Positions 4,851 through 22,170 of a DNA stretch of 64,000 nt are shown here, in pieces. The stretch spans positions 6,488-70,487 of the forward strand of contig URMA01000004.1 of the NCBI GenBank assembly GCA_900548875.1. The letters run 5' to 3'. The notes beneath the pieces are model-generated. The model had not been told where the DNA came from, ran no database searches, and was given only the letters and a program-made list of their open reading frames with translations. Positions within the stretch are counted from its first letter, which is position 1. Every line of letters begins with the position of its first letter. This DNA comes from an uncultured Porphyromonadaceae bacterium (GTDB lineage: Bacteria; Bacteroidota; Bacteroidia; Bacteroidales; Muribaculaceae). The position numbers and the translations under genes are program-made.

Positions 4851-6053
4851 ATGAAACGTCTGAAAAAATTCTATTTCGACATATACAGAGCATTCAAGAA
4901 CGAATTCAAGTTCGTTATCAAGGACAAGGGTCTGCTGATCTTCCTGTTCCTTGTGCCGCTGCTCTATCCGATTGTTTATGCGCTCATCTATAATCCGGAA
5001 CTGACGCGCGACGTGCCGGTAGCGATTGTCGACGACAGCCGTTCGGTGAAAAGCCGCGAACTGGCACGCAAAATCGACGCCTCGGAATCGGCCATGGTAG
5101 CCGGCTATGCCGCCGACATGGAAGAGGCAAAACGCTGGATAGCCGAAAAACGGTGCTACGGAATTGTGCACATTGACCGCGATTTCGACCGCAACATCGT
5201 CCGAGGCGAACAGGGCACCGTGAGCCTCTACTGCGACATGTCGCTGCTCATCCGCTACAAGTCGCTGCTCGTAGCCCTGACCGAATCGACCATGGACCTT
5301 GGCTCGGATATCCGCATTGAAAAGATGTACAGTCTCGGAGCCGACGCGCCGAAAGTGCCGCCGACAGTATCCAGCACCTATTTTGCTTTGGGTAATCCCG
5401 AACAAGGCTTCGCCACCTTCCTGCTTCCGGCCATCCTTATCCTCATCGTGCAGCAGACCATCATTCTTTCCGTCTGCATGATGGGCGGCGCCATCTACGA
5501 ACGCCGTCGCCGCTACGGAGACGTGGACCCCTACGACACTCGGAATTCAGGAGCCGTCAGCCGTATGCTCGGAAAGGCAATGGCTTTCATCATCCTCTAT
5601 CTCGGCCAACTGGTTTATCTGCTCTATTTCGTACCGAAATTCTTCAGCTATCCGCAGTATGCCAACCTGTTTGAGGTGGTTCTCCTCTGCGTGCCCTATC
5701 TGTTTGCCGCCGTATTCTTCGGAATGACATTGCAGGTCATCGTACGCGAACGCGAGACGTCGTTTGTGCTGATAGTCGTAACTTCGGTCATCTTCCTGTT
5801 CCTTTCAGGCATTCCCTGGCCGCTCTACGACATGAGTCCCCTCTACCGCTTTGTCAGCGCATGCTGCCCGTCAACCTGGGCCATGCAGGCATTTGTACGC
5901 ATGAACGCCAACGGAGCTTCGCTCGGCGATGTCAACCACGAATACATGATGCTGTGGCTGAACGCCATCGGCTACTTCTTCATCGCCCTGTTTATCAACA
6001 AGGCTTCAGTGGGACACCACGTCCGCCAATATTCGCCGGAAAAAGCGCAATAG
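4851..6053 (+). CDS. ABC-2 type transporter permease (second paralog)
   Basis: It has the same architecture as the preceding gene and is the last gene of the operon. An intrinsic terminator follows. Confidence 0.75.
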   Translation: MKRLKKFYFDIYRAFKNEFKFVIKDKGLLIFLFLVPLLYPIVYALIYNPELTRDVPVAIVDDSRSVKSRELARKIDASESAMVAGYAADMEEAKRWIAEKRCYGIVHIDRDFDRNIVRGEQGTVSLYCDMSLLIRYKSLLVALTESTMDLGSDIRIEKMYSLGADAPKVPPTVSSTYFALGNPEQGFATFLLPAILILIVQQTIILSVCMMGGAIYERRRRYGDVDPYDTRNSGAVSRMLGKAMAFIILYLGQLVYLLYFVPKFFSYPQYANLFEVVLLCVPYLFAAVFFGMTLQVIVRERETSFVLIVVTSVIFLFLSGIPWPLYDMSPLYRFVSACCPSTWAMQAFVRMNANGASLGDVNHEYMMLWLNAIGYFFIALFINKASVGHHVRQYSPEKAQ

Positions 6054-6072
6054 TCCGGCGCAACCGAATTAA

Positions 6073-6122
6073 ACCGGCATTATCCCTGTTTCAATGGCAG
6101 GAATAATGCCGGTTTCTCATTC
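6073..6122 (+). terminator. Rho-independent terminator after the efflux operon
   Basis: A hairpin (accggcattat ... ataatgccggt) is followed by a T-rich tract. Confidence 0.6.
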
Positions 6123-6316
6123 TATCCAACCTTCCGACGGACAAGATATGACAACCGACAATTTTCTCATCCAAAATTTGTTAATTGTTTTGAAAATAAT
6201 TTATACCTTTGCGCTTTCTTTTAACCCAAATCCGCCATAAAGGACTGTTTTGGGTTTAGTGGACAGGTGTTTGCCTGCAGGTGAAAAATGATTGTAATAA
6301 CAGGTTTTTAAAGTAA

Positions 6317-8011
6317 ATGGAGATTCTATCTAAAGTTGATTTCAAGCCGAAATTGCTTTCGACTCTGAAAAACTACAACGCAGCGCGTTTTAAGGATGAT
6401 TTGATTGCCGGCATCGTGGTCGGCATTGTGGCATTGCCGCTTGCCGTGGCATTCGGTATCGCTTCGGGCGTCACACCGACAGTCGGCCTCATCACTGCCG
6501 TCATCGGCGGTTTCCTTGTGTCGGCTCTCGGTGGCAGCACGGTGCAGATCGGCGGCCCGACGGGCGCATTCATCGTCATTATCTACGGCATTATCCAGCA
6601 GTTCGGACTGACGGGACTGGCCATCGCCACTTTCCTTGCCGGACTGATTCTTGTTTTTTTGGGAATTTTCCGTCTGGGCACGGTCATCAAGTTTATCCCC
6701 TATCCGATTGTCATCGGCTTTACCTCGGGTATCGCCGTCACCATATTCTCCACACAGATTACCGACTTCTTCGGACTCCAGACGGGAGCCCTTCCGTCGG
6801 ACTTTCTCTCGAAATGGGGCGTATATATCAGCCATTTCGGCACCATGCACTGGCCTACGCTCGTCGTGGGACTCGTGTCGCTGGTCATCATTGCCGGCAT
6901 GCCCTACATTTCCAAACGTCTGCCGGGCGCGCTGATTGCCATTGTGGTAGTGACGGCCGTAGTCTATGTGCTTCGCGAACACTTCGGCCTGACCGGCATT
7001 GAAACCATCGGCGACCGCTTCGCCAACCTGTCGGGAGCCATTCCTACACCCCACTCCATCGGAGTCAACATTGAAACCATCAACGCCCTGCTCCCGTCGG
7101 CATTCACCATCGCCATGCTGGGCGCCATCGAGTCGCTGCTGTCGGCTACCGTGGCCGACGGTGCGACCAGCACAACCACCAACTCCAACACGGAACTCAT
7201 CGGACAGGGCATCGCCAACATCGTCGTGCCGTTTTTCGGCGGTATTCCCGTCACAGGTGCCATCGCGCGTACGATGACCAACATCAGTAACGGTGGACGC
7301 ACACCGGTGGCCGGCATTATCCATGCCATTGTCCTGCTGCTGATATTCCTGTTCCTGATGCCGCTTATCAACCTCGTACCGATGGCCTGTCTGGCAGGCG
7401 TGCTGATTATGGTTGCCTACAACATGAGCGGCTGGCGCACGGTGAAAGCCATTCTCAAGACTCCGAAATCGGATGTTACGGTCATGATTGTTACTTTTGT
7501 ACTTACCGTGATTTTCGACCTCACGATTGCCATTGAAATCGGCCTGCTGCTTGCCATCCTGCTCTTCCTGCGCCGTGTGATGGAGAACACGCAAATCCGC
7601 CACGTCGGTGAGCAAATCGACATTGCCGAAGGTGCGGAAGTGACCACCCACGAGGTGCTCGACCTGGAAAAGGGAGTGGAAGTCTACGAAATCGACGGCC
7701 CGTTCTTCTTCGGAGTGGCCACGAAATTCGACGAAATGATGCGCTCGATGGGCGACAAGCCGAAGGTCCGCATCCTGCGCATGCGCAAGGTGCCGTTCAT
7801 CGACTCCACGGCCATCCACAACCTGGAAATCCTTATCCAGTCGTCGCAGAAGGAAGGAATCCACGTCGTGCTTTCGGGAGTCAACCCGAACGTGCATGCC
7901 GTGCTTGAACGCGCCAACATCGAGGACCTGATTGGCAAGGACCACGTTTGCGACCACATCACCAAAGCCGTGGTAATGGCCAACAAGATTGCCCGCGGCG
8001 AAAAAGACTGA
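6317..8011 (+). CDS. SulP-family inorganic anion (sulfate) permease with C-terminal STAS domain
   Basis: The N-terminal motif IAGIVVGIVALPLAVAFGIASGV and ~11 TM helices fit SulP. The C-terminal ~130 aa have STAS-like features (..IDSTAIHNLE..). Confidence 0.85.
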   Translation: MEILSKVDFKPKLLSTLKNYNAARFKDDLIAGIVVGIVALPLAVAFGIASGVTPTVGLITAVIGGFLVSALGGSTVQIGGPTGAFIVIIYGIIQQFGLTGLAIATFLAGLILVFLGIFRLGTVIKFIPYPIVIGFTSGIAVTIFSTQITDFFGLQTGALPSDFLSKWGVYISHFGTMHWPTLVVGLVSLVIIAGMPYISKRLPGALIAIVVVTAVVYVLREHFGLTGIETIGDRFANLSGAIPTPHSIGVNIETINALLPSAFTIAMLGAIESLLSATVADGATSTTTNSNTELIGQGIANIVVPFFGGIPVTGAIARTMTNISNGGRTPVAGIIHAIVLLLIFLFLMPLINLVPMACLAGVLIMVAYNMSGWRTVKAILKTPKSDVTVMIVTFVLTVIFDLTIAIEIGLLLAILLFLRRVMENTQIRHVGEQIDIAEGAEVTTHEVLDLEKGVEVYEIDGPFFFGVATKFDEMMRSMGDKPKVRILRMRKVPFIDSTAIHNLEILIQSSQKEGIHVVLSGVNPNVHAVLERANIEDLIGKDHVCDHITKAVVMANKIARGEKD

Positions 8012-11280: not shown

Positions 11281-11304
11281 CATTTCGTTCCTGTCAACAT
11301 ATCC

Positions 11305-11342
11305 CTGCGCCGCACTCCACCGAGTCGCGGCGCAGTTTTTTC
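11305..11342 (+). terminator. Rho-independent terminator after aspS
   Basis: A GC-rich hairpin (ctgcgccgc ... gcggcgcag) is followed by TTTTTT. Confidence 0.7.
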
Positions 11343-11349
11343 ATAGGGT

Positions 11350-11500
11350 TAGCGGTTAGGGGTTATAGGTTAGAGTATATTTTTCTGACAGAGAACAGAA
11401 GAACATAATTTCCCCTATTTGCCACGAAAATCCGCCGACAACACTAACCTATAACCTCTAAACCATAACCCAAGTATGTCTTTTTGTTCTTCTGTCTAAA
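11350..11500. repeat. MITE-like small repeat element with GACAGAAGAACA-type terminal inverted repeats (one copy of a dispersed family)
   Basis: Left end is ..ctgacagagaacagaagaacat.. and right end is ..gtctttttgttcttctgtctaaaag. There are internal inverted ggttataggttagag / ctaacctataacctc blocks. Related copies occur at 37.2-37.9 kb, 42.3-42.6 kb and 56.74-56.82 kb. Confidence 0.6.
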
Positions 11501-11544
11501 AGTTAAAAAGCCATCGACCGCATATCGCAAACAGAAAAACTGCA

Positions 11545-11665
11545 TTTTTCATTTGTCTTTTCTCTCAACTTGCACCATCTTTTCATAAGATAGGCGGCGT
11601 TTCGGAAATACAAAATTGAATAAATTCATTTTGTATTTCTCTCAACTTGCACTATCTTTGTACCC
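11545..11665 (+). promoter_or_regulatory. Tandemly duplicated promoter cassette upstream of the nif3-like gene (downstream copy -7 TATCTTTG at 11653-11660)
   Basis: There are two copies of ..tctctcaacttgcacYatcttt.. The upstream copy reads tcttttc (degenerate -7). The downstream copy is an exact TAnnTTTG 19 nt before the ATG. Confidence 0.5.
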
Positions 11666-11678
11666 GAAATTGTGATAA

Positions 11679-12773
11679 ATGAAAATTCGCTGTATTTTAG
11701 ACGCGATTGAGGAATTTGCCCCTCGCGCTTTGCAGGAAGACTACGACAACGCAGGACTGCAGGCAGGCGATTCGGCAAAGGACTGTACGGGAGTGCTCTT
11801 GACGCTTGACGTGACCGAAGGTTCGGTGGAAGAAGCCATAGAGCGCGACTGTAACCTTATCATATCTCATCATCCCCTACTTTTTAAAGGCGTAAAATGT
11901 ATTTCTCCCGCTACAGAAACGGGCAGAATCCTCATGAAAGCTATTCGGAACGGAGTGGCCATCTATGCGGCGCACACGAATTTGGACAATGCCTGGGGCG
12001 GCGTGTCGTTCCGCATGGCGGAAAAACTGGGCATGACCTCCGTACGGGTACTGCAACCGCAGGAAGGACGCCTTTCCAAAATTGTGACATTCGTACCCGA
12101 CTCTCACCGTCAGGCAGTGGAAGAGGCGCTGTTTGCCGCAGGAGCAGGCTGCATAGGCAACTACGACTCTTGCAGCTATACGCTTCAAGGCATGGGCTCT
12201 TTCCGTCCGCTGGACGGCGCAAACCCGTATGTGGGCGAGCGCGGAACGGTACACCACGAAGCGGAAACGCGCGTTGAAGTCATCATCCCGTCGTGGCTGA
12301 CTGCGAAAGCCGTCAGTGCCCTGCTGAAAGCCCACCCCTACGAGGAACCGGCCTACGATGTCATCCCTCTGGCAAACGCCGACCGCTACAGCGGCTCGGG
12401 AGCTGTAGGCGAAATTGAGCTGACCACCGTCGGGAAGCTGCTGGAACGGCTTCAAGCCGTGTTCGGCACAAAAGCGATCCGCTACTCTGGCGACAAGGAA
12501 AAGGCGGTGAGCCGCGTGGCTCTTTGCGGCGGAAGCGGTGCATTTCTCACCGGCGACGCTATTGCTGCCGGTGCCGACATCTACATCACAGGGGACCTTA
12601 AATATCACGACTTTACCACCTTTGCCGGACAGATTGCGCTTGCCGACATCGGACACTACGAAAGCGAACAGTGTGCGAAGGAGATTTTCGGCGGCATCCT
12701 GCGCGAACGCTTCCCGCAACTGCCTGTCGTGATGGCTGAAACAGACATAAATCCGATTAATTATCATATTTAA
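11679..12773 (+). CDS. Nif3-like dinuclear metal center protein (YqfO/GTP cyclohydrolase 1 type 2 homolog family)
   Basis: Both the N-terminus (..NAGLQAG..) and the C-terminal half match the NIF3 family. Length is 364 aa. Confidence 0.85.
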   Translation: MKIRCILDAIEEFAPRALQEDYDNAGLQAGDSAKDCTGVLLTLDVTEGSVEEAIERDCNLIISHHPLLFKGVKCISPATETGRILMKAIRNGVAIYAAHTNLDNAWGGVSFRMAEKLGMTSVRVLQPQEGRLSKIVTFVPDSHRQAVEEALFAAGAGCIGNYDSCSYTLQGMGSFRPLDGANPYVGERGTVHHEAETRVEVIIPSWLTAKAVSALLKAHPYEEPAYDVIPLANADRYSGSGAVGEIELTTVGKLLERLQAVFGTKAIRYSGDKEKAVSRVALCGGSGAFLTGDAIAAGADIYITGDLKYHDFTTFAGQIALADIGHYESEQCAKEIFGGILRERFPQLPVVMAETDINPINYHI

Positions 12774-13547: not shown

Positions 13548-13566
13548 CGGAATTTTCAATCAACCC

Positions 13567-13618
13567 CATAAAACGCGTCAGCCTCCCGAACTCGGTTCAG
13601 GAGGCTGACGTTTTTTAT
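13567..13618. terminator. Bidirectional intrinsic terminator
   Basis: A perfect long palindrome (aaaacgcgtcagcctcc ... ggaggctgacgtttttt) is flanked by A-rich and T-rich tracts. Confidence 0.7.
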
Positions 13619-13689
13619 GGCCGGTAGGTGCTCAAAAACACGACAAAACACCAGAATCTACAATAATATTGCGAAAAAAGTAAACATCT

Positions 13690-14892
13690 ATGATTAGTGT
13701 GAAAGTAAAATTCCGTCCTTCAACCGTCGTGGGTAAGGAAGGCGTTATCTATTATCAGATTATCCAAAACCGTATCGTTCGCCAACTGACAACAAGCTAC
13801 CGAATCTTCCCCTGTGAATGGGACGGACCGAACGCACGGCTCATTATCGGCAACACGGCCCGAAGCAACCAGCTGCTTTCGCTGAAAAGCCACATTGATT
13901 GGGACCTCCGGCGAATCAATATGATTATCAGCCGGTTGACACAAGACAATCAGCCCTTCTCCGCCAACGACATCATTGCAGCGTTTCAAACCCGGACTGA
14001 CGAACTGTCGTTAGCCAATTTTATGGAAAGCATTATAGCCCAACTGAAACAGATGGGCAAATTGCGAACAGCCGAAACCTATACGGCAACCCTCCGCAGC
14101 TTCATGCGGTTTCGCAACGATGCCGATGTGCTGTTGGACGAAATAACACCCGAACTGATTGCAATGTACGAAGCCTATCTGCAAAACAACGGAGTGGTAA
14201 GAAACACCAGCTCATTTTATTTGCGCATTTTCCGTGCCGTCTACAACCGTGCTGTCGGGAAAGACCTCGTCCGGCAACGGAATCCATTTAAGAATGTCTA
14301 TACGGGAGTGGACAAAACCGTGAAACGGGCCCTTCCCCTCTCTGCCATCCGTCGGATAAAAAATCTCGACTTGACCCGGCTTCCGAAATTGGAATTTGCC
14401 CGTGACATGTTCCTATTCTCATTCTACACGCGAGGGATGTCGTTCATCGACATGGCTTTTCTAAAAAAGACCGATCTCCAGAACGGATATTTGAAATATC
14501 GCCGCCACAAAACCAAACAACAGCTCCTTATCCGTTGGGAAAAATGCATGCAAGAAATTCTCTCATTGCACCCAACCGACAAAGCAAGCCCCTATCTTCT
14601 CCCCATAGTGAAACAGCCCTACGACAATGCCAGGAAATGTTATCGGAATACAATGGCTTCCATCAATGTTCAGCTAAAAAAGATAGCTGAACTTACCAAC
14701 GTAGCCTTTCCATTAAGCCTCTATTGTGCCCGCCATTCATGGGCAAGCATAGCACACAGCAAAAACATACCAATTTCCATTATCAGCGAAGGTATGGGAC
14801 ACGACTCTGAAGCAACCACATTAATCTATTTAGCATCAATCGACAATACCACCATCGACAACGCCAACGCTAAAATATTGAAAGATTTATAA
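13690..14892 (+). CDS. Site-specific tyrosine recombinase/integrase (Bacteroides-type, with N-terminal arm-binding domain)
   Basis: The C-terminal catalytic region carries RHSWAS...H..E and a LIYL tyrosine. Length (400 aa) and the N-terminal region are typical of Bacteroidales integrases and invertases. It sits at the boundary of a low-GC island. Confidence 0.85.
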   Translation: MISVKVKFRPSTVVGKEGVIYYQIIQNRIVRQLTTSYRIFPCEWDGPNARLIIGNTARSNQLLSLKSHIDWDLRRINMIISRLTQDNQPFSANDIIAAFQTRTDELSLANFMESIIAQLKQMGKLRTAETYTATLRSFMRFRNDADVLLDEITPELIAMYEAYLQNNGVVRNTSSFYLRIFRAVYNRAVGKDLVRQRNPFKNVYTGVDKTVKRALPLSAIRRIKNLDLTRLPKLEFARDMFLFSFYTRGMSFIDMAFLKKTDLQNGYLKYRRHKTKQQLLIRWEKCMQEILSLHPTDKASPYLLPIVKQPYDNARKCYRNTMASINVQLKKIAELTNVAFPLSLYCARHSWASIAHSKNIPISIISEGMGHDSEATTLIYLASIDNTTIDNANAKILKDL

Positions 14893-14917
14893 AGAGTTTT
14901 GTTTAGAAAATTACAGC

Positions 14918-14934
14918 ATCTCTATTTAAGAGAC
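14918..14934. repeat. Inverted repeat IR-L (atctctatttaagagac) of a putative invertible DNA switch
   Basis: The 15 bp core tctctatttaagaga is the exact reverse complement of the core at 15090-15104. Confidence 0.55.
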
Positions 14935-14947
14935 GTATTAATTATCA

Positions 14948-14955
14948 CAAAATTA
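14948..14955 (-). promoter_or_regulatory. Consensus -7 promoter element TAATTTTG on the minus strand inside the IR-bracketed segment. It currently faces the recombinase, i.e. the OFF orientation relative to the island operon.
   Basis: The match to TAnnTTTG is exact. It lies 13 nt from IR-L. After inversion it would lie ~14 nt from IR-R, reading into the 15136 gene. Confidence 0.45.
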
Positions 14956-15088
14956 GAAAATTCTTTCATATAAAAAAAATTCAAATCAATTTTAAGTACA
15001 CAATAAATGTAAATTTTTGTTTTGTTTAGAAAATTTCGATAATATCATTTATATTCATCTGATTTAATGTAGGGAACAAACACACTAT

Positions 15089-15105
15089 ATCTCTTAAATA
15101 GAGAC
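15089..15105. repeat. Inverted repeat IR-R (atctcttaaatagagac) of the putative invertible switch
   Basis: It is the reverse complement of the IR-L core. It lies 31 nt upstream of the ATG at 15136. Confidence 0.55.
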
Positions 15106-15135
15106 AATAAAGTCTAATACATAAAAATTACTACT

Positions 15136-16212
15136 ATGTACAATGAGAAAATTGAAGCACTCATTAATGCAGCCTTAACAGATGGAGTATTAACAGAAAA
15201 AGAAAAACAAGTACTTTTCAAAAATGCAGAAGCCCAGGGTATAGATCGTGATGAATTCGAAATGGTCTTAGAAGCACGATTACACGAAATGAAAAAAGCT
15301 GCACAAAAAGAGACAACATCTCCAAAATCTAACAAATTTGGAGATGTCAAAAAATGTCCAGCTTGCGGTGCGCTTATACAATCATTTCAAACTAAGTGCA
15401 GTGAATGTGGACATGAATTTAGTAATATTGGTGCTGTCACTTCTGCCCAGAGATTATTTGATTTACTTCAAGCTGCAGAAATGCGAAAATCAGAGCAAAT
15501 TTCAGCGCATAATCAAGAAAAAGCCAGACGTCTTGAAGAATTATCGAAACGTCACAATAGCGATAGCTCTTTCACTAAAATTTTTGGAGGAAATTCACGA
15601 AAAGAAACTCAAGATGAAGAACGTGAAGATTTGATACGAGAACTCAACAACAATTTAGCCATCATTGAAAAAAGTGCAGAACAAGAGAAGTTAGCTATTA
15701 TCAAAAACTTCCCAGTACCGAATACAGGTGAAGACTTAATTGAATTGCTTGCCATGACAACAAGTAATGCATATGATAACGATGGAGTCATAGGATTAGA
15801 AGAAGAGGCATGGCTACAAAAAACAGATCAAATATATCAAAAAGTTATTGCCTGTTCAGCTAATGACAAACCATTGTTAAAAAAAGCAACTCACATGGTT
15901 ACCTCTCTTATGCGACGTTTGCCTAATCAAGCTAACTATAAACATTTCACAAAAATCCCGACTGAAATGAGGACAATATTAGAGGAGGAGTTAAAAGTTG
16001 AACGAAAACACAAACAAGAACAGAACAAACAACTGATTTTATCAGTTCTGAAAGTCTATGGCACCATTGCTTGCATTGCCTTGTTATTATGTATTATTTT
16101 CTCATATATAGAAGAGCCCAGTGTAGCAGTATTATTTTTTATTATTGCAATTATCACAGTTTTCTTGGGATACAAAGCTTTTAAAAAGAAGAAAAACGAC
16201 AATCTTTTCTAA
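15136..16212 (+). CDS. Membrane protein with an N-terminal TerB-like domain, a C4 zinc ribbon, an acidic coiled-coil region and a C-terminal 2-TM anchor (YdjG-like?)
   Basis: The N-terminal ~60 aa read ..LTDGVLTEKEKQVLFKNAEAQGIDRDEFEMVL.. and fit the TerB/DjlA-N pattern. Next comes KCPACG...CSECGH. The C-terminal ~60 aa form two hydrophobic helices followed by KKKK. GC is ~33%. Confidence 0.6.
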   Translation: MYNEKIEALINAALTDGVLTEKEKQVLFKNAEAQGIDRDEFEMVLEARLHEMKKAAQKETTSPKSNKFGDVKKCPACGALIQSFQTKCSECGHEFSNIGAVTSAQRLFDLLQAAEMRKSEQISAHNQEKARRLEELSKRHNSDSSFTKIFGGNSRKETQDEEREDLIRELNNNLAIIEKSAEQEKLAIIKNFPVPNTGEDLIELLAMTTSNAYDNDGVIGLEEEAWLQKTDQIYQKVIACSANDKPLLKKATHMVTSLMRRLPNQANYKHFTKIPTEMRTILEEELKVERKHKQEQNKQLILSVLKVYGTIACIALLLCIIFSYIEEPSVAVLFFIIAIITVFLGYKAFKKKKNDNLF

Positions 16213-16241
16213 TATTAAATACTAATCAAGAACTAATTACT

Positions 16242-17579
16242 ATGGGATTATTCAGCAACAGAAGTAAGTCTGGTGGGATTCTTAATGTAATACGCTGCGA
16301 CGAACAAGAATATTTAGTATGGAAATGGCGTCCAGAAGGACAAGAAGTAAATTCAACGACTCGAGAGAATTCAATCCGATACGGAAGTTCATTAAGAGTA
16401 AAAGACGGAGAATTAGCCGTTTTTGTCTACAAGCAGAAAGATGGTTCTATGCAAGACTTCATTTTGGGACCTTATGATGGAACTATTAAAACTGCAAATT
16501 TCCCCGTATTGTCAAACATTGTCGGATTGGCATTTGGAGGAGATTCTCCTTTCCAAGCTGAAATATATTTTATAAATCTAGCAGGTAATGTACAAATCAA
16601 GTTTGGAATTCCATACTTTGACGTATACGATCCGCGTTTTCTTGATTTTGGAGTACCTATGTCTGTACGAGGTACTATAACCTTTAATATTACTGATTAT
16701 AAAGGTTTCATCAAACTTAACCGATTAATAAATTTCGAACTTGAAGATTTCAAGAAACAGATAAAGGATGCCGTAACAAAATACGTCAAGCAGGTAGTAA
16801 GTAATTGTCCGTCAGACAATGGGATACCAGTACTGCAAATAGAGCGAAAAATACTTGAAATCAATGACATTGTTGCCGCTTATCTTAGCAAACGACTACA
16901 AGCTGATTTTGGAGTAAACATGAAAGGCCTTGATATAGCCAATATAGAAATTGACAAAGAATCTGATGGGTATAGAGCATTAATAGCAGTTACTGCAGAG
17001 CAAACTGCGAAAACAGTGTTTGCACAAACTGATGTCAACATACAAAATTTGCAAGATACTCAGCGTATCAATGCGAAAAACTCAGAAGAGACATTACGCA
17101 TCCAAAGAGAAGAAGCACAACGTGCCCAACGTTTACAGACAGAAACAAATTTCATGGGCGCACATGCCATAGACCAACAAACAGATGTCTTGAGAACTGC
17201 TGCTTCCAACCTTGGAGAAATGGGGAACTTAGGAAATGGAGGAATGAATCCAGCAGGCATGATGACCGGTATGATGATGGGAACTGCCATGGGAGGACAA
17301 ATGGCCAATATGATGAATCAGATGGGACATCAAGCCCAACAACAGTCCATGACACCACCTCCTCCGCCAACCTCAAATTATATGTTATATGTAAATGGAG
17401 CACAAAGTGGACCGTTTAATCTTGCCCAATTACAACAATTGGCGCAAACAGGTCAATTTACCCCACAAACATACGTTTGGAAACAAGGAATGGCAAATTG
17501 GTTACCAGCTGAACAAATTGCAGAATTGTCAGGAATATTTGTTCAACAAACCCCACCACCTCCTCCTGTTATGCCATAG
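16242..17579 (+). CDS. SPFH/Band-7 (Band_7_1-like) domain protein with a Gly/Met/Gln-rich linker, proline runs and a C-terminal GYF_2 (DUF4339) domain
   Basis: The N-terminal ~280 aa resemble the bacterial Band_7_1 SPFH family (YdjI-like). The C-terminus reads YMLYVNGAQSGPFNLAQLQQLAQTGQFTPQTYVWKQGMANWLPAEQIAEL, which matches the DUF4339 pattern. It is flanked by PPPPP runs. Confidence 0.6.
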   Translation: MGLFSNRSKSGGILNVIRCDEQEYLVWKWRPEGQEVNSTTRENSIRYGSSLRVKDGELAVFVYKQKDGSMQDFILGPYDGTIKTANFPVLSNIVGLAFGGDSPFQAEIYFINLAGNVQIKFGIPYFDVYDPRFLDFGVPMSVRGTITFNITDYKGFIKLNRLINFELEDFKKQIKDAVTKYVKQVVSNCPSDNGIPVLQIERKILEINDIVAAYLSKRLQADFGVNMKGLDIANIEIDKESDGYRALIAVTAEQTAKTVFAQTDVNIQNLQDTQRINAKNSEETLRIQREEAQRAQRLQTETNFMGAHAIDQQTDVLRTAASNLGEMGNLGNGGMNPAGMMTGMMMGTAMGGQMANMMNQMGHQAQQQSMTPPPPPTSNYMLYVNGAQSGPFNLAQLQQLAQTGQFTPQTYVWKQGMANWLPAEQIAELSGIFVQQTPPPPPVMP

Positions 17580-17628
17580 ATATACATAATTAATAAGTAA
17601 ATATATAAACAATTCATATAATTTTAAT

Positions 17629-17973
17629 ATGGACGATAACAGCTTTTCTTCCATCGATCGACTTATGGAGTTTGGTATGAGCATGGGCATTGCACAACAA
17701 ATGATAAACACCATGAATCAATCTTTAAATTCGATGTATGTTCCCAACGCAGGTCAAAAAATAAGTCCAACAAAAAATGGATACTATATCATCATTGACA
17801 ATCGTCAATTAGGTCCACTTAATGAGGATGAAATTTCCATTTTAGCAAAAAATGGCCGCTTGTCAGAAAATGATTTTGTGTGGAAGGAAGGAATGACTGG
17901 TTGGCGATTGGCAAAAGAAATTCCAGAAATATACAAATATATAATTTTATACTACAAACCATATGAAGATTGA
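17629..17973 (+). CDS. Small protein with a C-terminal GYF_2 (DUF4339) domain
   Basis: The motif ..GYYIIIDNRQLGPLNEDEISILAKNGRLSENDFVWKEGMTGWRLAKEIPEI.. matches the tail of the preceding protein. Confidence 0.55.
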   Translation: MDDNSFSSIDRLMEFGMSMGIAQQMINTMNQSLNSMYVPNAGQKISPTKNGYYIIIDNRQLGPLNEDEISILAKNGRLSENDFVWKEGMTGWRLAKEIPEIYKYIILYYKPYED

Positions 17974-18313
17974 CTTTATAAACACGATTATAAGTTGCTG
18001 TTTAACTGCTCTTTTGACATATATATGCTATTCAATATGTAAGTATACTGAATTCCAAACACTGCTTATCATCGGCTCTTCTATAATTTTTATCCTATTG
18101 TCTATACCATCAATAGCTATAAAAATTCCCAATTATTCCAGGACTTCTATTTTACTTAAAATCACATCTGTAATATTTTGGAGTATAGCTATCATTACAA
18201 ACATTATTTTTGCACTTAGCAATTTTAGCAATTCTTCATATATTATTACAAACGGAATAATACTAATATTGTTTATTTTAACATATTCATCTATATATCG
18301 AACTAAACAATAA
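17963..18313 (+). CDS. Small integral membrane protein (3 predicted TM helices), last gene of the island operon
   Basis: It overlaps the preceding gene by 11 nt. The protein is strongly hydrophobic and has low GC. No family was recognised. Confidence 0.45.
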   Translation: MKIDFINTIISCCLTALLTYICYSICKYTEFQTLLIIGSSIIFILLSIPSIAIKIPNYSRTSILLKITSVIFWSIAIITNIIFALSNFSNSSYIITNGIILILFILTYSSIYRTKQ

Positions 18314-18317
18314 CACT

Positions 18318-18372
18318 AAAAACGTCAGAACCCCAAGTGTTTGAAAAAGGCATTTGGGATTTTGACGTTTTA
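18318..18372. terminator. Bidirectional intrinsic terminator at the right island boundary
   Basis: The sequence aaaacgtca ... tgacgtttt forms a palindrome with an inner ccccaagtg/catttggg stem. It serves the island operon (+) and the convergent dehydrogenase gene (-). Confidence 0.6.
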
Positions 18373-18415
18373 TATTATCAGTTGGCGGAAGTGGACGGAG
18401 CCGCTCCCGTGGGGA

Positions 18416-21791: not shown

Positions 21792-21984
21792 TACAGTGTC
21801 CTTGTTTTAAAAAGACAAGAAGGAATAAATTCCTTTGAATTTCACACACATTAGTTGCGCGCCCTCCTCCGAGCATAGCCTTCAGAGAAAAGCACTGTTT
21901 GTACAGCCGGCAATCCGGAATTTGTTAGAATGCCGCCGCCGTTTTTCAGATAATGCCTCGACTGAACAAAAGGAAATCCGACAA

Positions 21985-22170
21985 TGTCACCTTTCCTTTT
22001 CTCTCAACTTGCACCATCTTTGTAGAAGATAGGATACGCCTTGGCATAAAACTCAAACAAGTTTGGTTTTCTGCACTCGGCTTTCACTATCTTTTAATAA
22101 CATAGGCTGCGTTTCGGAAAAGAAAATTGAGCAAGCTCTTTCCTTTTCCCTCAACTTGCACTATCTTTGC
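21985..22170 (+). promoter_or_regulatory. Promoter region with three repeats of the promoter cassette (-7-like motifs). The downstream exact TATCTTTG is at 22162-22169.
   Basis: The motifs are ..ctcaacttgcaccatctttgtag.., ..ctttcactatcttttaat.. and ..ctcaacttgcactatctttgcaa... The aaacaagtttggttttctgca block is also seen at 46.99 kb. Confidence 0.45.

Follow-up and report, generated by a model that had tools for sequence, protein, structure and literature searches.

A strain-variable insertion in a Bacteroidales genome that carries a recombinase, its predicted invertible promoter and an SPFH and GYF_2 gene module

The element described here is a strain-variable insertion of 4.76 kb in a genome assembled from an uncultured Porphyromonadaceae bacterium (Muribaculaceae in the GTDB lineage; GenBank assembly GCA_900548875.1, contig URMA01000004.1, positions 6,488 to 70,487 of the forward strand). 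The 64,000 nt analysed are referred to as the window, and coordinates are positions in the window unless another locus is named. The AspS of the host is 93% identical to that of Phocaeicola barnesiae, a similarity that by itself places the chromosome as Phocaeicola-like, within the Bacteroidaceae. Alignment to a conspecific empty site delimits the insertion at 13619-18375. It holds five genes, all on the plus strand: a tyrosine recombinase of 400 aa (13690-14892), followed by four cargo genes that we call A (358 aa, 15136-16212), B (445 aa, 16242-17579), C (114 aa, 17629-17973) and D (116 aa, 17963-18313). The 243 nt between the recombinase stop codon and A contain a pair of perfect inverted repeats with a Bacteroides-type -7 box between them, and this predicted promoter faces away from the cargo.

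Genes A-D are tightly packed, with gaps of 29 nt (A-B) and 49 nt (B-C) and an 11-nt overlap between the end of C and the start of D. An earlier reading of this DNA, made from the letters alone (the sequence-only reading), had proposed the same five open reading frames, a co-directional operon and a cargo of low guanine plus cytosine content (GC), and all of this is confirmed, its estimated gaps of 30 and 50 nt being off by one. GC is 0.27-0.39 over 14.8-18.4 kb compared with approximately 0.47-0.62 in the flanks, and 0.26-0.39 in the four cargo genes. At third codon positions the cargo has a GC of 0.23-0.33 and neighbouring host genes one of 0.58-0.69, with the recombinase gene at 0.55. The foreign composition is confined to the cargo; the recombinase gene is not foreign.

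Alignment to the empty site stops at 13618, which sets the start of the island at 13619, and picks up again at 18363, with an overlap of 13 bp. At the left junction, inverted-repeat and terminator scans find a terminator hairpin 3´ of a Zn_ribbon_9 gene (13566-13620; arms of 26 nt, 88% complementarity), with the shared core TGACGTTTTTTAT at 13606-13618 as the left border. The right junction (18319-18375), located by its inverted repeat and by the alignment to the empty site, is formed by an island-borne hairpin (18319-18371; arms of 21 nt, 86% complementarity) in which the base of the stem copies the left hairpin; the shared core TGACGTTTTATAT at 18363-18375 is the right border and host DNA follows. 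With a slash at the border, the empty site reads ...CTGACGTTTTTTAT/TGTCAGTTGGCGG, the left junction of the window ...CTGACGTTTTTTAT/GGCCGGTAGG and the right junction ...TTGACGTTTTATAT/TATCAGTTGGCGG. The two hairpins had been taken for bidirectional terminators delimiting the island. The hairpins are there, and from the alignment and the junction sequences it follows that they are also the attachment-like (att-like) direct repeats that flank the insertion, which was made at the 3´ edge of a terminator hairpin.

Public assemblies searched for the exact neighbouring Zn_ribbon_9 protein gave conspecific contigs that present four states of this one site. It is empty in L022-L024, where the gap to the saccharopine dehydrogenase gene is 111 nt. 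In L018 it is filled by a SusC/SusD pair that starts from exactly the same left junction and is not accompanied by a recombinase. In L019-L021 a 400-aa recombinase precedes a different low-GC cargo of short genes, including thioredoxin-like ones, and the right-hand border copy in L019 is a 64-nt duplicate of the hairpin (86% identical). Finally, the recombinase together with A-D is found in 12 copies (the window, L001-L010 and L111). These states give direct evidence of an island, and the sequence-only reading is supported in its view of an integrase-linked, horizontally acquired, low-GC operon of four genes. The chromosomal point at 13606-13618 (attB core) is an insertion hotspot that takes different cargos.

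The recombinase has an arm-binding domain (Arm-DNA-bind_5, 5.7e-7), a SAM-like domain (Phage_int_SAM_5, 2.3e-20) and a catalytic domain (Phage_integrase, 4.5e-5) by Pfam. In an alignment of 31 members of its family, R248, K274, R348, H349, H371 and Y380 are near-invariant. It shares 79-88% protein identity with the enzymes of L019/L021. The left inverted repeat behind it, TCTCTATTTAAGAGA (14919-14933), is an imperfect palindrome of 15 nt with a core of the TCTC-N7-GAGA type and is 100% complementary to the right repeat, TCTCTTAAATAGAGA (15090-15104), with 31 nt between its end and the A start codon. A repeat of this length was reached in none of 2000 shuffles of the recombinase-A gap, and the repeat pattern is unique in the window. 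At the same position in L019/L021 the repeats read CTCCTTGTAAGAGATG and CATCTCTTACAAGGAG around a spacer of 155 nt, such that both arms have changed together. Between the repeats of the window lies a 156-nt core (14934-15089), and in it a match to the Bacteroides -7 consensus TAnnTTTG, TAATTTTG (14948-14955, minus strand), that points at the recombinase. Because the box faces this way, the downstream operon is predicted to be transcriptionally OFF until the segment flips, with the recombinase as the presumed agent of flipping. An invertible promoter in this place would make A-D a phase-variable operon, currently OFF, rather than plain cargo behind an integrase; the sequence-only reading, in which a tyrosine recombinase starts an integrase-linked island, overlooked the switch. 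A metagenome scan for flipped copies, made with a junction pattern without flanking sequence, gave one match, L111. The pattern is not diagnostic, as the perfect repeats make its reverse complement identical to the left junction of the OFF state, and L111 is another OFF copy.

The switch region has a second recurrent motif. TTGTTTAGAAAA occurs at 14899-14910 on the plus strand, 8 nt to the left of the left repeat and as part of a 17-nt direct repeat, and again at 15022-15033 inside the invertible core; it is found only these two times in the window, with 0.02 occurrences expected. The family consensus is TGTTTAGCAAA, and motifs of this type are seen at the same positions, one copy just outside the left repeat and one inside the core, in approximately 40 loci of related recombinases. 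As the recombinase has an arm-binding domain, the two copies are possibly arm-type or accessory binding sites. In the OFF state they form direct repeats; in the ON state they would be inverted, and the pair may make flipping in one direction more likely.

Among species-representative genomes, 578 relatives of the recombinase were detected in Bacteroidales. We surveyed the best 80 of these (loci L025-L104), all of which have the Bacteroidales-type arrangement and 71 of which have enough downstream DNA for a repeat search. An inverted repeat of 12-25 nt is present downstream of the recombinase in 60 of the 71, mostly starting 11-60 nt past the stop codon (in a few up to approximately 130 nt), with spacers mostly of 136-174 nt and one of 231 nt. 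In 55 of the 60 loci a -7 box is found close to one end of the spacer, at a distance of approximately 14-25 nt; it faces OFF in 46 and ON in 9. In one pair, L062 and L085, the flanks are collinear (95% and 82% identity) and the 154-nt cores are 94% identical as reverse complements compared with 63% in the forward direction; it follows that inversion does occur in the recombinase family. The enzyme of the window belongs to a large Bacteroidales family with a predicted invertible promoter behind it. The first two cargo genes behind the related switches include DrmD-like SNF2 helicases (5), BrxC/PglY (2), FHA proteins (7), type I/II methyltransferases, Eco57I, MmeI, DUF4391, radical SAM enzymes and thioredoxins. 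The family thus often has phage-defence-type cargo under its switches, which points to widespread phase-variable defence cassettes in Bacteroidales. A-D are absent from all of the 80 loci.

Protein A consists of a TerB-like helical hairpin (residues ~4-57), a C4 zinc ribbon (74-94), a conserved helical domain (~103-261) and two C-terminal transmembrane (TM) helices (~299-351). The ribbon scores below the Pfam cut-off (Zn_ribbon_3, E=1.1e-5), and its CPxC...CxxC pattern is invariant in 30 homologues; at family level, 28 of 30 homologues match Zn_ribbon_3. The match to TerB (E=0.014) covers profile positions 78-115 only, which are the last 38; of 30 homologues, 20 match TerB and 19 the related DUF533. 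One TerB-like helical hairpin is therefore a fair description of what the N-terminus is predicted to be. The AlphaFold2 (AF2) model of A has a predicted local distance difference test score (pLDDT) of 80, is all helix except for the ribbon, with the two TM helices at its end. A has 2476 homologues, and all named ones are called 'hypothetical protein'. Its family comprises 2946 cluster representatives at 50% identity, most of which have only residues 1-120 (hairpin and ribbon) in common, and among copies of the module the C-terminus varies, some having two TM helices and others lacking them. The A core of L016 carries at its N-terminus a fused GYF_2 region rich in prolines.

Protein B is made up of a Band_7_1 domain (E=1.5e-23), a long helix, a Met/Gly/Gln-rich linker and a GYF_2 domain (E=1.1e-19) that sits between two PPPPP runs. 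It is an SPFH protein of the YdjI type, soluble and devoid of hydrophobic segments. Its homologues number more than 8000. Identity to B is 72-100%, mostly 73-87%, among the 120 listed, all of which combine Band_7_1 with GYF_2; 108 of 119 have two runs of at least four prolines around GYF_2, and such a run is found in none of 120 homologues of A. From the structural model we used the SPFH and GYF parts alone. They match the SPFH domains of stomatin, HflK/C, QmcA and flotillin (E approximately 1e-5, TM-score 0.64-0.71 on the target) and the GYF domains of GltJ, GIGYF and Smy2. The closest solved structure by sequence, and the only one, is the GYF domain of GltJ (7z3c, E=3.7e-7).

Protein C has a Met-rich helix followed by a GYF_2 domain (E=2e-15) and has neither a proline run nor a TM segment. 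Residues 340-439 of B align with residues 13-111 of C at 33% identity, and C is best regarded as a free-standing paralogue of the tail of B. Protein D is a small integral membrane protein made almost wholly of four hydrophobic segments; it adjoins C in every copy of the module that we examined and has no match in Pfam, NCBIfam, PADLOC or PHROG. The domains that the sequence-only reading had assigned to B and C are borne out by these searches. For A, the ribbon with its invariant cysteines and the two TM helices stand, and TerB survives as a partial match at the level of the family; D, which had been counted as a 3-TM protein, has one segment more. PADLOC, PHROGs and NCBIfam give no informative family for A-D, and PADLOC v2 returns nothing significant, the nearest being a weak match to residues 7-171 of A (best E=5.7e-4, PDC-S48) and none to B, C or D.

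The order A-B-C-D is kept in at least eight unrelated contexts in three phyla (Bacteroidota, Kapabacteria and Puniceicoccales). Copies at native GC and without a recombinase are found in ordinary chromosomal settings in L011-L014 and L016/L017, and further native-GC copies in Kapabacteria (L107), environmental Bacteroidota (L108/L109) and Puniceicoccales (L110). The module is not intrinsically an island, and most copies have native GC in ordinary contexts. The question raised by the sequence-only reading, whether the four genes form an island or belong to a core genome of normal GC, has in this sense two answers: they are inserted here, and elsewhere they mostly reside at native GC without a recombinase. 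Some of these copies have features of their own. In environmental copies B and C are separated by a small additional gene, of approximately 101 aa in L108 (8531-8836) and L110 (2914-3219) and of 44 aa in L107 (8623-8757), which is missing from the gut copies. Ser/Thr kinase genes lie within 1-3 kb of the native copies L011 (11660-12967) and L016 (9898-11202), and DUF6591 genes lie 3´ of D in L011 and L107. Upstream of the native-GC module in L011 (3539-3764) and L012 (3628-3853) is a 13-nt inverted repeat, AAAATCAGTTCAC and GTGAACTGAATTT, with a spacer of 200 nt, unrelated in sequence to the switch of the window.

A low-GC lineage of the module is found behind this class of switch in three independent contexts, the first being the window. 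In the second (L015/L112/L113), the module sits between UPF0102 and DUF1015 genes with no adjacent recombinase, and an 18-nt repeat (CTCTTTTGAAGAGAACTA and TAGATCTCTTCAAAAGAG, spacer of 148 nt) lies directly upstream of A. In the third (L114), a recombinase that is 45% identical over aligned segments is followed by a perfect 21-nt repeat with a spacer of 144 nt and an OFF-facing -7 box, then by two extra genes and A-D, at a GC below that of the recombinase. This copy is bracketed by two 493-aa AAA-ATPase_like/PDDEXK_9 genes on the opposite strand (L114 1-249 and 8401-9882), which suggests either an insertion into this gene family or its duplication. A related gene pair is carried by a phage: in L106, a 62-kb IMG/VR phage contig, a double-zinc-ribbon TM protein is encoded directly upstream of a Band_7_1 and GYF_2 protein that is 49% identical to B (5217-7275). 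Counterparts of C and D are absent from this contig, which also carries a YonO-like RNA polymerase, Tad3 (anti-Thoeris) and MazG.

Taken as a whole, the locus is a strain-variable insertion in which a recombinase of this family and its predicted invertible promoter, here in the OFF orientation, have been joined to a horizontally acquired copy of a widespread module, A-B-C-D, that is probably a membrane scaffold. The polymorphism of the site, the anatomy of the switch and its conservation in the family, the inversion between L062 and L085, the domain content of A-D and the conservation of the module are direct observations on which this reading builds.

The switch half is of a known kind. In Bacteroides thetaiotaomicron, loci with a tyrosine recombinase and imperfect palindromes with variable centres have their promoter in the OFF orientation in the assembly (10.1101/521070; PMC4611039; PMC4747536), and one such invertible promoter drives restriction genes, BT4014-13 (10.1101/521070). 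As in those loci (the BT1927 S-layer family, BT4014-13 and Tsr19/Tsr26 of B. fragilis), the recombinase of the window adjoins its predicted promoter segment, which there measures approximately 150-300 bp; the repeats are imperfect palindromes with a variable centre, the promoter is often OFF in assemblies, and the operon is phase-variable, or in our case predicted to be. The repeat core differs, being of the TCTC-N7-GAGA type here and GTTAC-N7-GTAAC in the Bacteroides loci, and so does the cargo, a cytoplasmic-membrane SPFH module in place of surface lipoproteins, OmpA, polysaccharide or restriction genes. In further contrast to the known loci, the whole unit here is a strain-variable insertion, and flipping is predicted.

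The cargo half, abundant and uncharacterised, resembles in outline the PspA-YdjGHI (SamGHI) operon of Bacillus subtilis. There, YdjG combines two zinc ribbons with an NTF2-like domain and a TM segment, YdjH is a TPM-domain protein and PspA is encoded in the operon (PMC11237479); YdjI reaches the membrane only with its membrane partners YdjG and YdjH (PMC8581546). Both systems have a soluble Band_7_1 protein with a low-complexity C-terminal region, alongside a zinc-ribbon membrane protein and a second membrane protein. The resemblance to ydjGHI claimed by the sequence-only reading holds for B, a YdjI-type protein, and fails for A and D. Compared with the published description of YdjG, A has one ribbon, helical domains and two TM helices rather than two ribbons and an NTF2-like domain; A, C and D have no TPM_phosphatase match, unlike YdjH, and D consists of little more than its four TM segments. 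The C-terminus of B is a GYF_2 domain with polyproline runs where that of YdjI is a zinc ribbon, and the free GYF_2 protein C is extra. None of the five island proteins matches PspA_IM30, in agreement with the earlier statement that PspA is missing. SPFH-NfeD operons (QmcA-YbbJ, stomatin-STOPP) likewise combine an SPFH scaffold with small membrane partners, and QmcA, stomatin and HflK/C are among the matches of the B model; they differ in that A, C and D have no NfeD match at E<=0.1 and that B has no membrane anchor of its own.

These likenesses lead to a possible mechanism. The recombinase would flip the 156-nt core, and in the ON state the -7 box would lie approximately 14 nt from the right repeat and read through it into A, which starts 31 nt beyond. 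As the solved SPFH relatives matched by the B model all assemble into rings or cages, B may do the same on the cytoplasmic face of the inner membrane. Having no anchor of its own, B would need A, with its ribbon, helical domain and 2-TM anchor, and D, with its four TM segments, for recruitment to the membrane. The GYF_2 domains of B and C could bind the polyproline runs of B, such that the assembly becomes cross-linked or capped, and C and D would be translationally coupled and could together serve as a receptor for the B tail at the membrane. The outcome would be a costly membrane-scaffold or envelope-protection state in part of the population only. All contacts among A-D, and the physiological role, are what we infer; the module could serve in tolerance of envelope stress, in phage exclusion or in another process.

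Several points weigh against this reading. No flipped copy is seen among the 12 copies of the island, all of which are OFF, so that flipping at this locus is something we infer rather than observe. The promoter is called from the -7 motif alone; the nearest TTTG is 26 nt upstream of the box, and the usual spacing in Bacteroides promoters is roughly 19-21 nt. In the OFF state, the cargo could still be expressed by read-through out of the recombinase gene. The att core is unlike the inverted-repeat core of the switch. A switch of the window type is absent from the native-GC copies of the module that were searched for it, which means that phase variation is not general to the module. As for the proteins, a structure search with the A model finds resemblance to generic helical hairpins only, and for B the AF2 model as a whole is of low confidence (pLDDT 57).

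A different view of the same genes is that A-D form a new anti-phage system, acting by abortive infection or exclusion, in which phase variation limits the cost as in phase-variable restriction systems. We regard this as possible although rather unlikely. The related switches carry DrmD-like SNF2 proteins, methyltransferases, BrxC/PglY, Eco57I and MmeI, the restriction genes BT4014-13 share the design, a phage encodes the related zinc-ribbon TM and Band_7_1 and GYF_2 pair, and A has a TerB-like element. The anti-phage or abortive-infection role suggested by the sequence-only reading keeps this circumstantial support from defence cargo and phage genes, and lacks any significant PADLOC match. 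A-D have no recognisable enzymatic or effector domain, and B, at 73-87% identity, is unusually conserved and occurs in ordinary contexts in several phyla, unlike fast-evolving defence genes. The literature search returned no SPFH-based defence system and nothing on Band_7_1 and GYF_2 proteins or on the module, and the earlier view that the architecture corresponds to no named system is upheld. The two ideas can be joined: the recombinase and its inverton may be a cargo-capturing phase-variable platform, and A-B-C-D a hitherto unrecognised SPFH cage against phage or envelope attack that is latched by contacts between GYF_2 and polyproline. The platform part draws on the finding that the same site and a near-identical switch carry different low-GC cargos; the combined proposal is speculative, and we consider it unlikely as a whole.

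The presence of GYF_2 domains raises another alternative, namely that the module is a zinc-ribbon and GYF signalling or polarity switch like GltJ of Myxococcus, which would recruit a proline-rich partner to a membrane site and would not protect the envelope. The GYF domain of GltJ binds a proline-rich sequence with micromolar affinity, and an adjacent zinc ribbon is present in 44% of bacterial GYF proteins, which are proposed switches (PMC11135422). The island shares with GltJ a GYF_2-type domain paired with a zinc ribbon and a membrane anchor, GltJ is the only solved sequence relative of B, and Ser/Thr kinase genes are found near two native copies of the module. Yet the domains that GltJ unites in one polypeptide are split over three proteins here: A carries the ribbon, and B and C each have a GYF_2 domain (in the L016 homologue the two are fused). 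The proline-rich sequence most likely to be bound is part of the GYF protein itself. Among the conserved components an SPFH scaffold dominates, the neighbourhood has no conserved GTPase or response partner, and there is no MglA/MglB or AglZ context. We find this explanation improbable.

Still less probable is that the locus is an rAID-type cluster whose cargo neutralises incoming toxins. The published operational definition of rAID-1 asks for a 5´ tyrosine recombinase that is at least 44% identical to BF9343_RS08045 and has a higher GC than its cargo, and for at least two co-directional downstream genes with GC of 41% or less. In layout and GC the island fits this definition, with a 5´ tyrosine recombinase of higher GC than its co-directional low-GC cargo, and it shares with rAID-1 a mobile, strain-variable occurrence, and the alternative cargo at the same site in L019 is an array of short low-GC genes. 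However, rAID-1 clusters are arrays of short orphan immunity genes with conserved, integron-like intergenic repeats. The cargo of the window has no matches to immunity families and no repeated intergenic motifs. Rather than an array of short genes without relation to each other, it is a four-gene module of fixed composition that is found intact elsewhere. In the rAID literature searched, an invertible promoter is not mentioned ('invert' occurs 0 times in PMC12247911). L090 (P. plebeius DSM 17135) was considered as a possible published rAID cluster and rejected, its cargo being a single 1666-aa open reading frame.

That the locus is a plain integrated island with a constitutive operon, in which the repeats are incidental or part of an RNA or terminator structure and the recombinase is an integrase only, would agree with the uniform orientation of the 12 copies and the att-like direct repeats at the insertion, but is very hard to reconcile with an anatomy conserved across the family, co-varying arms, a positioned -7 box, both orientations in the family and a distance of only 31 nt from the right repeat to the A start codon, too short to hold another promoter.

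If the locus is, as we favour, a recombinase and its invertible promoter joined to an SPFH module, it has several implications. A-B-C-D is an abundant module without a description in the literature searched, and its repeated capture behind a Bacteroidales phase-variation switch suggests that its expression is advantageous only part of the time. The range of cargo under such switches is widened from surface structures and restriction systems to a scaffold at the cytoplasmic membrane. That one site takes different cargos behind recombinase-switch units that are nearly identical is relevant to the way in which rAID-like clusters arise. Moreover, the switch gives an experimental handle on the function of the module through comparison of locked-ON and locked-OFF strains.

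Variation among strains extends beyond the island. The gap between aspS and a NIF3-like gene (11281-11678) is also strain-variable when L019, L022 and L023 are compared; some conspecific contigs have two extra genes in it (156 and approximately 180 aa), L023 has a third, and several contigs have a 219-aa gene with a faint Abi_2 match upstream of aspS. A search of Rfam with window 11-21 kb gave no match. An element of 45-67 nt is present in four copies, arranged as two tandem pairs at 11528-11685 and 21967-22120, the first of which lies upstream of the NIF3-like gene. It contains CTCAACTTGCACyATCTTTG, including a TAnnTTTG -7-like box, and looks like a reused promoter module.

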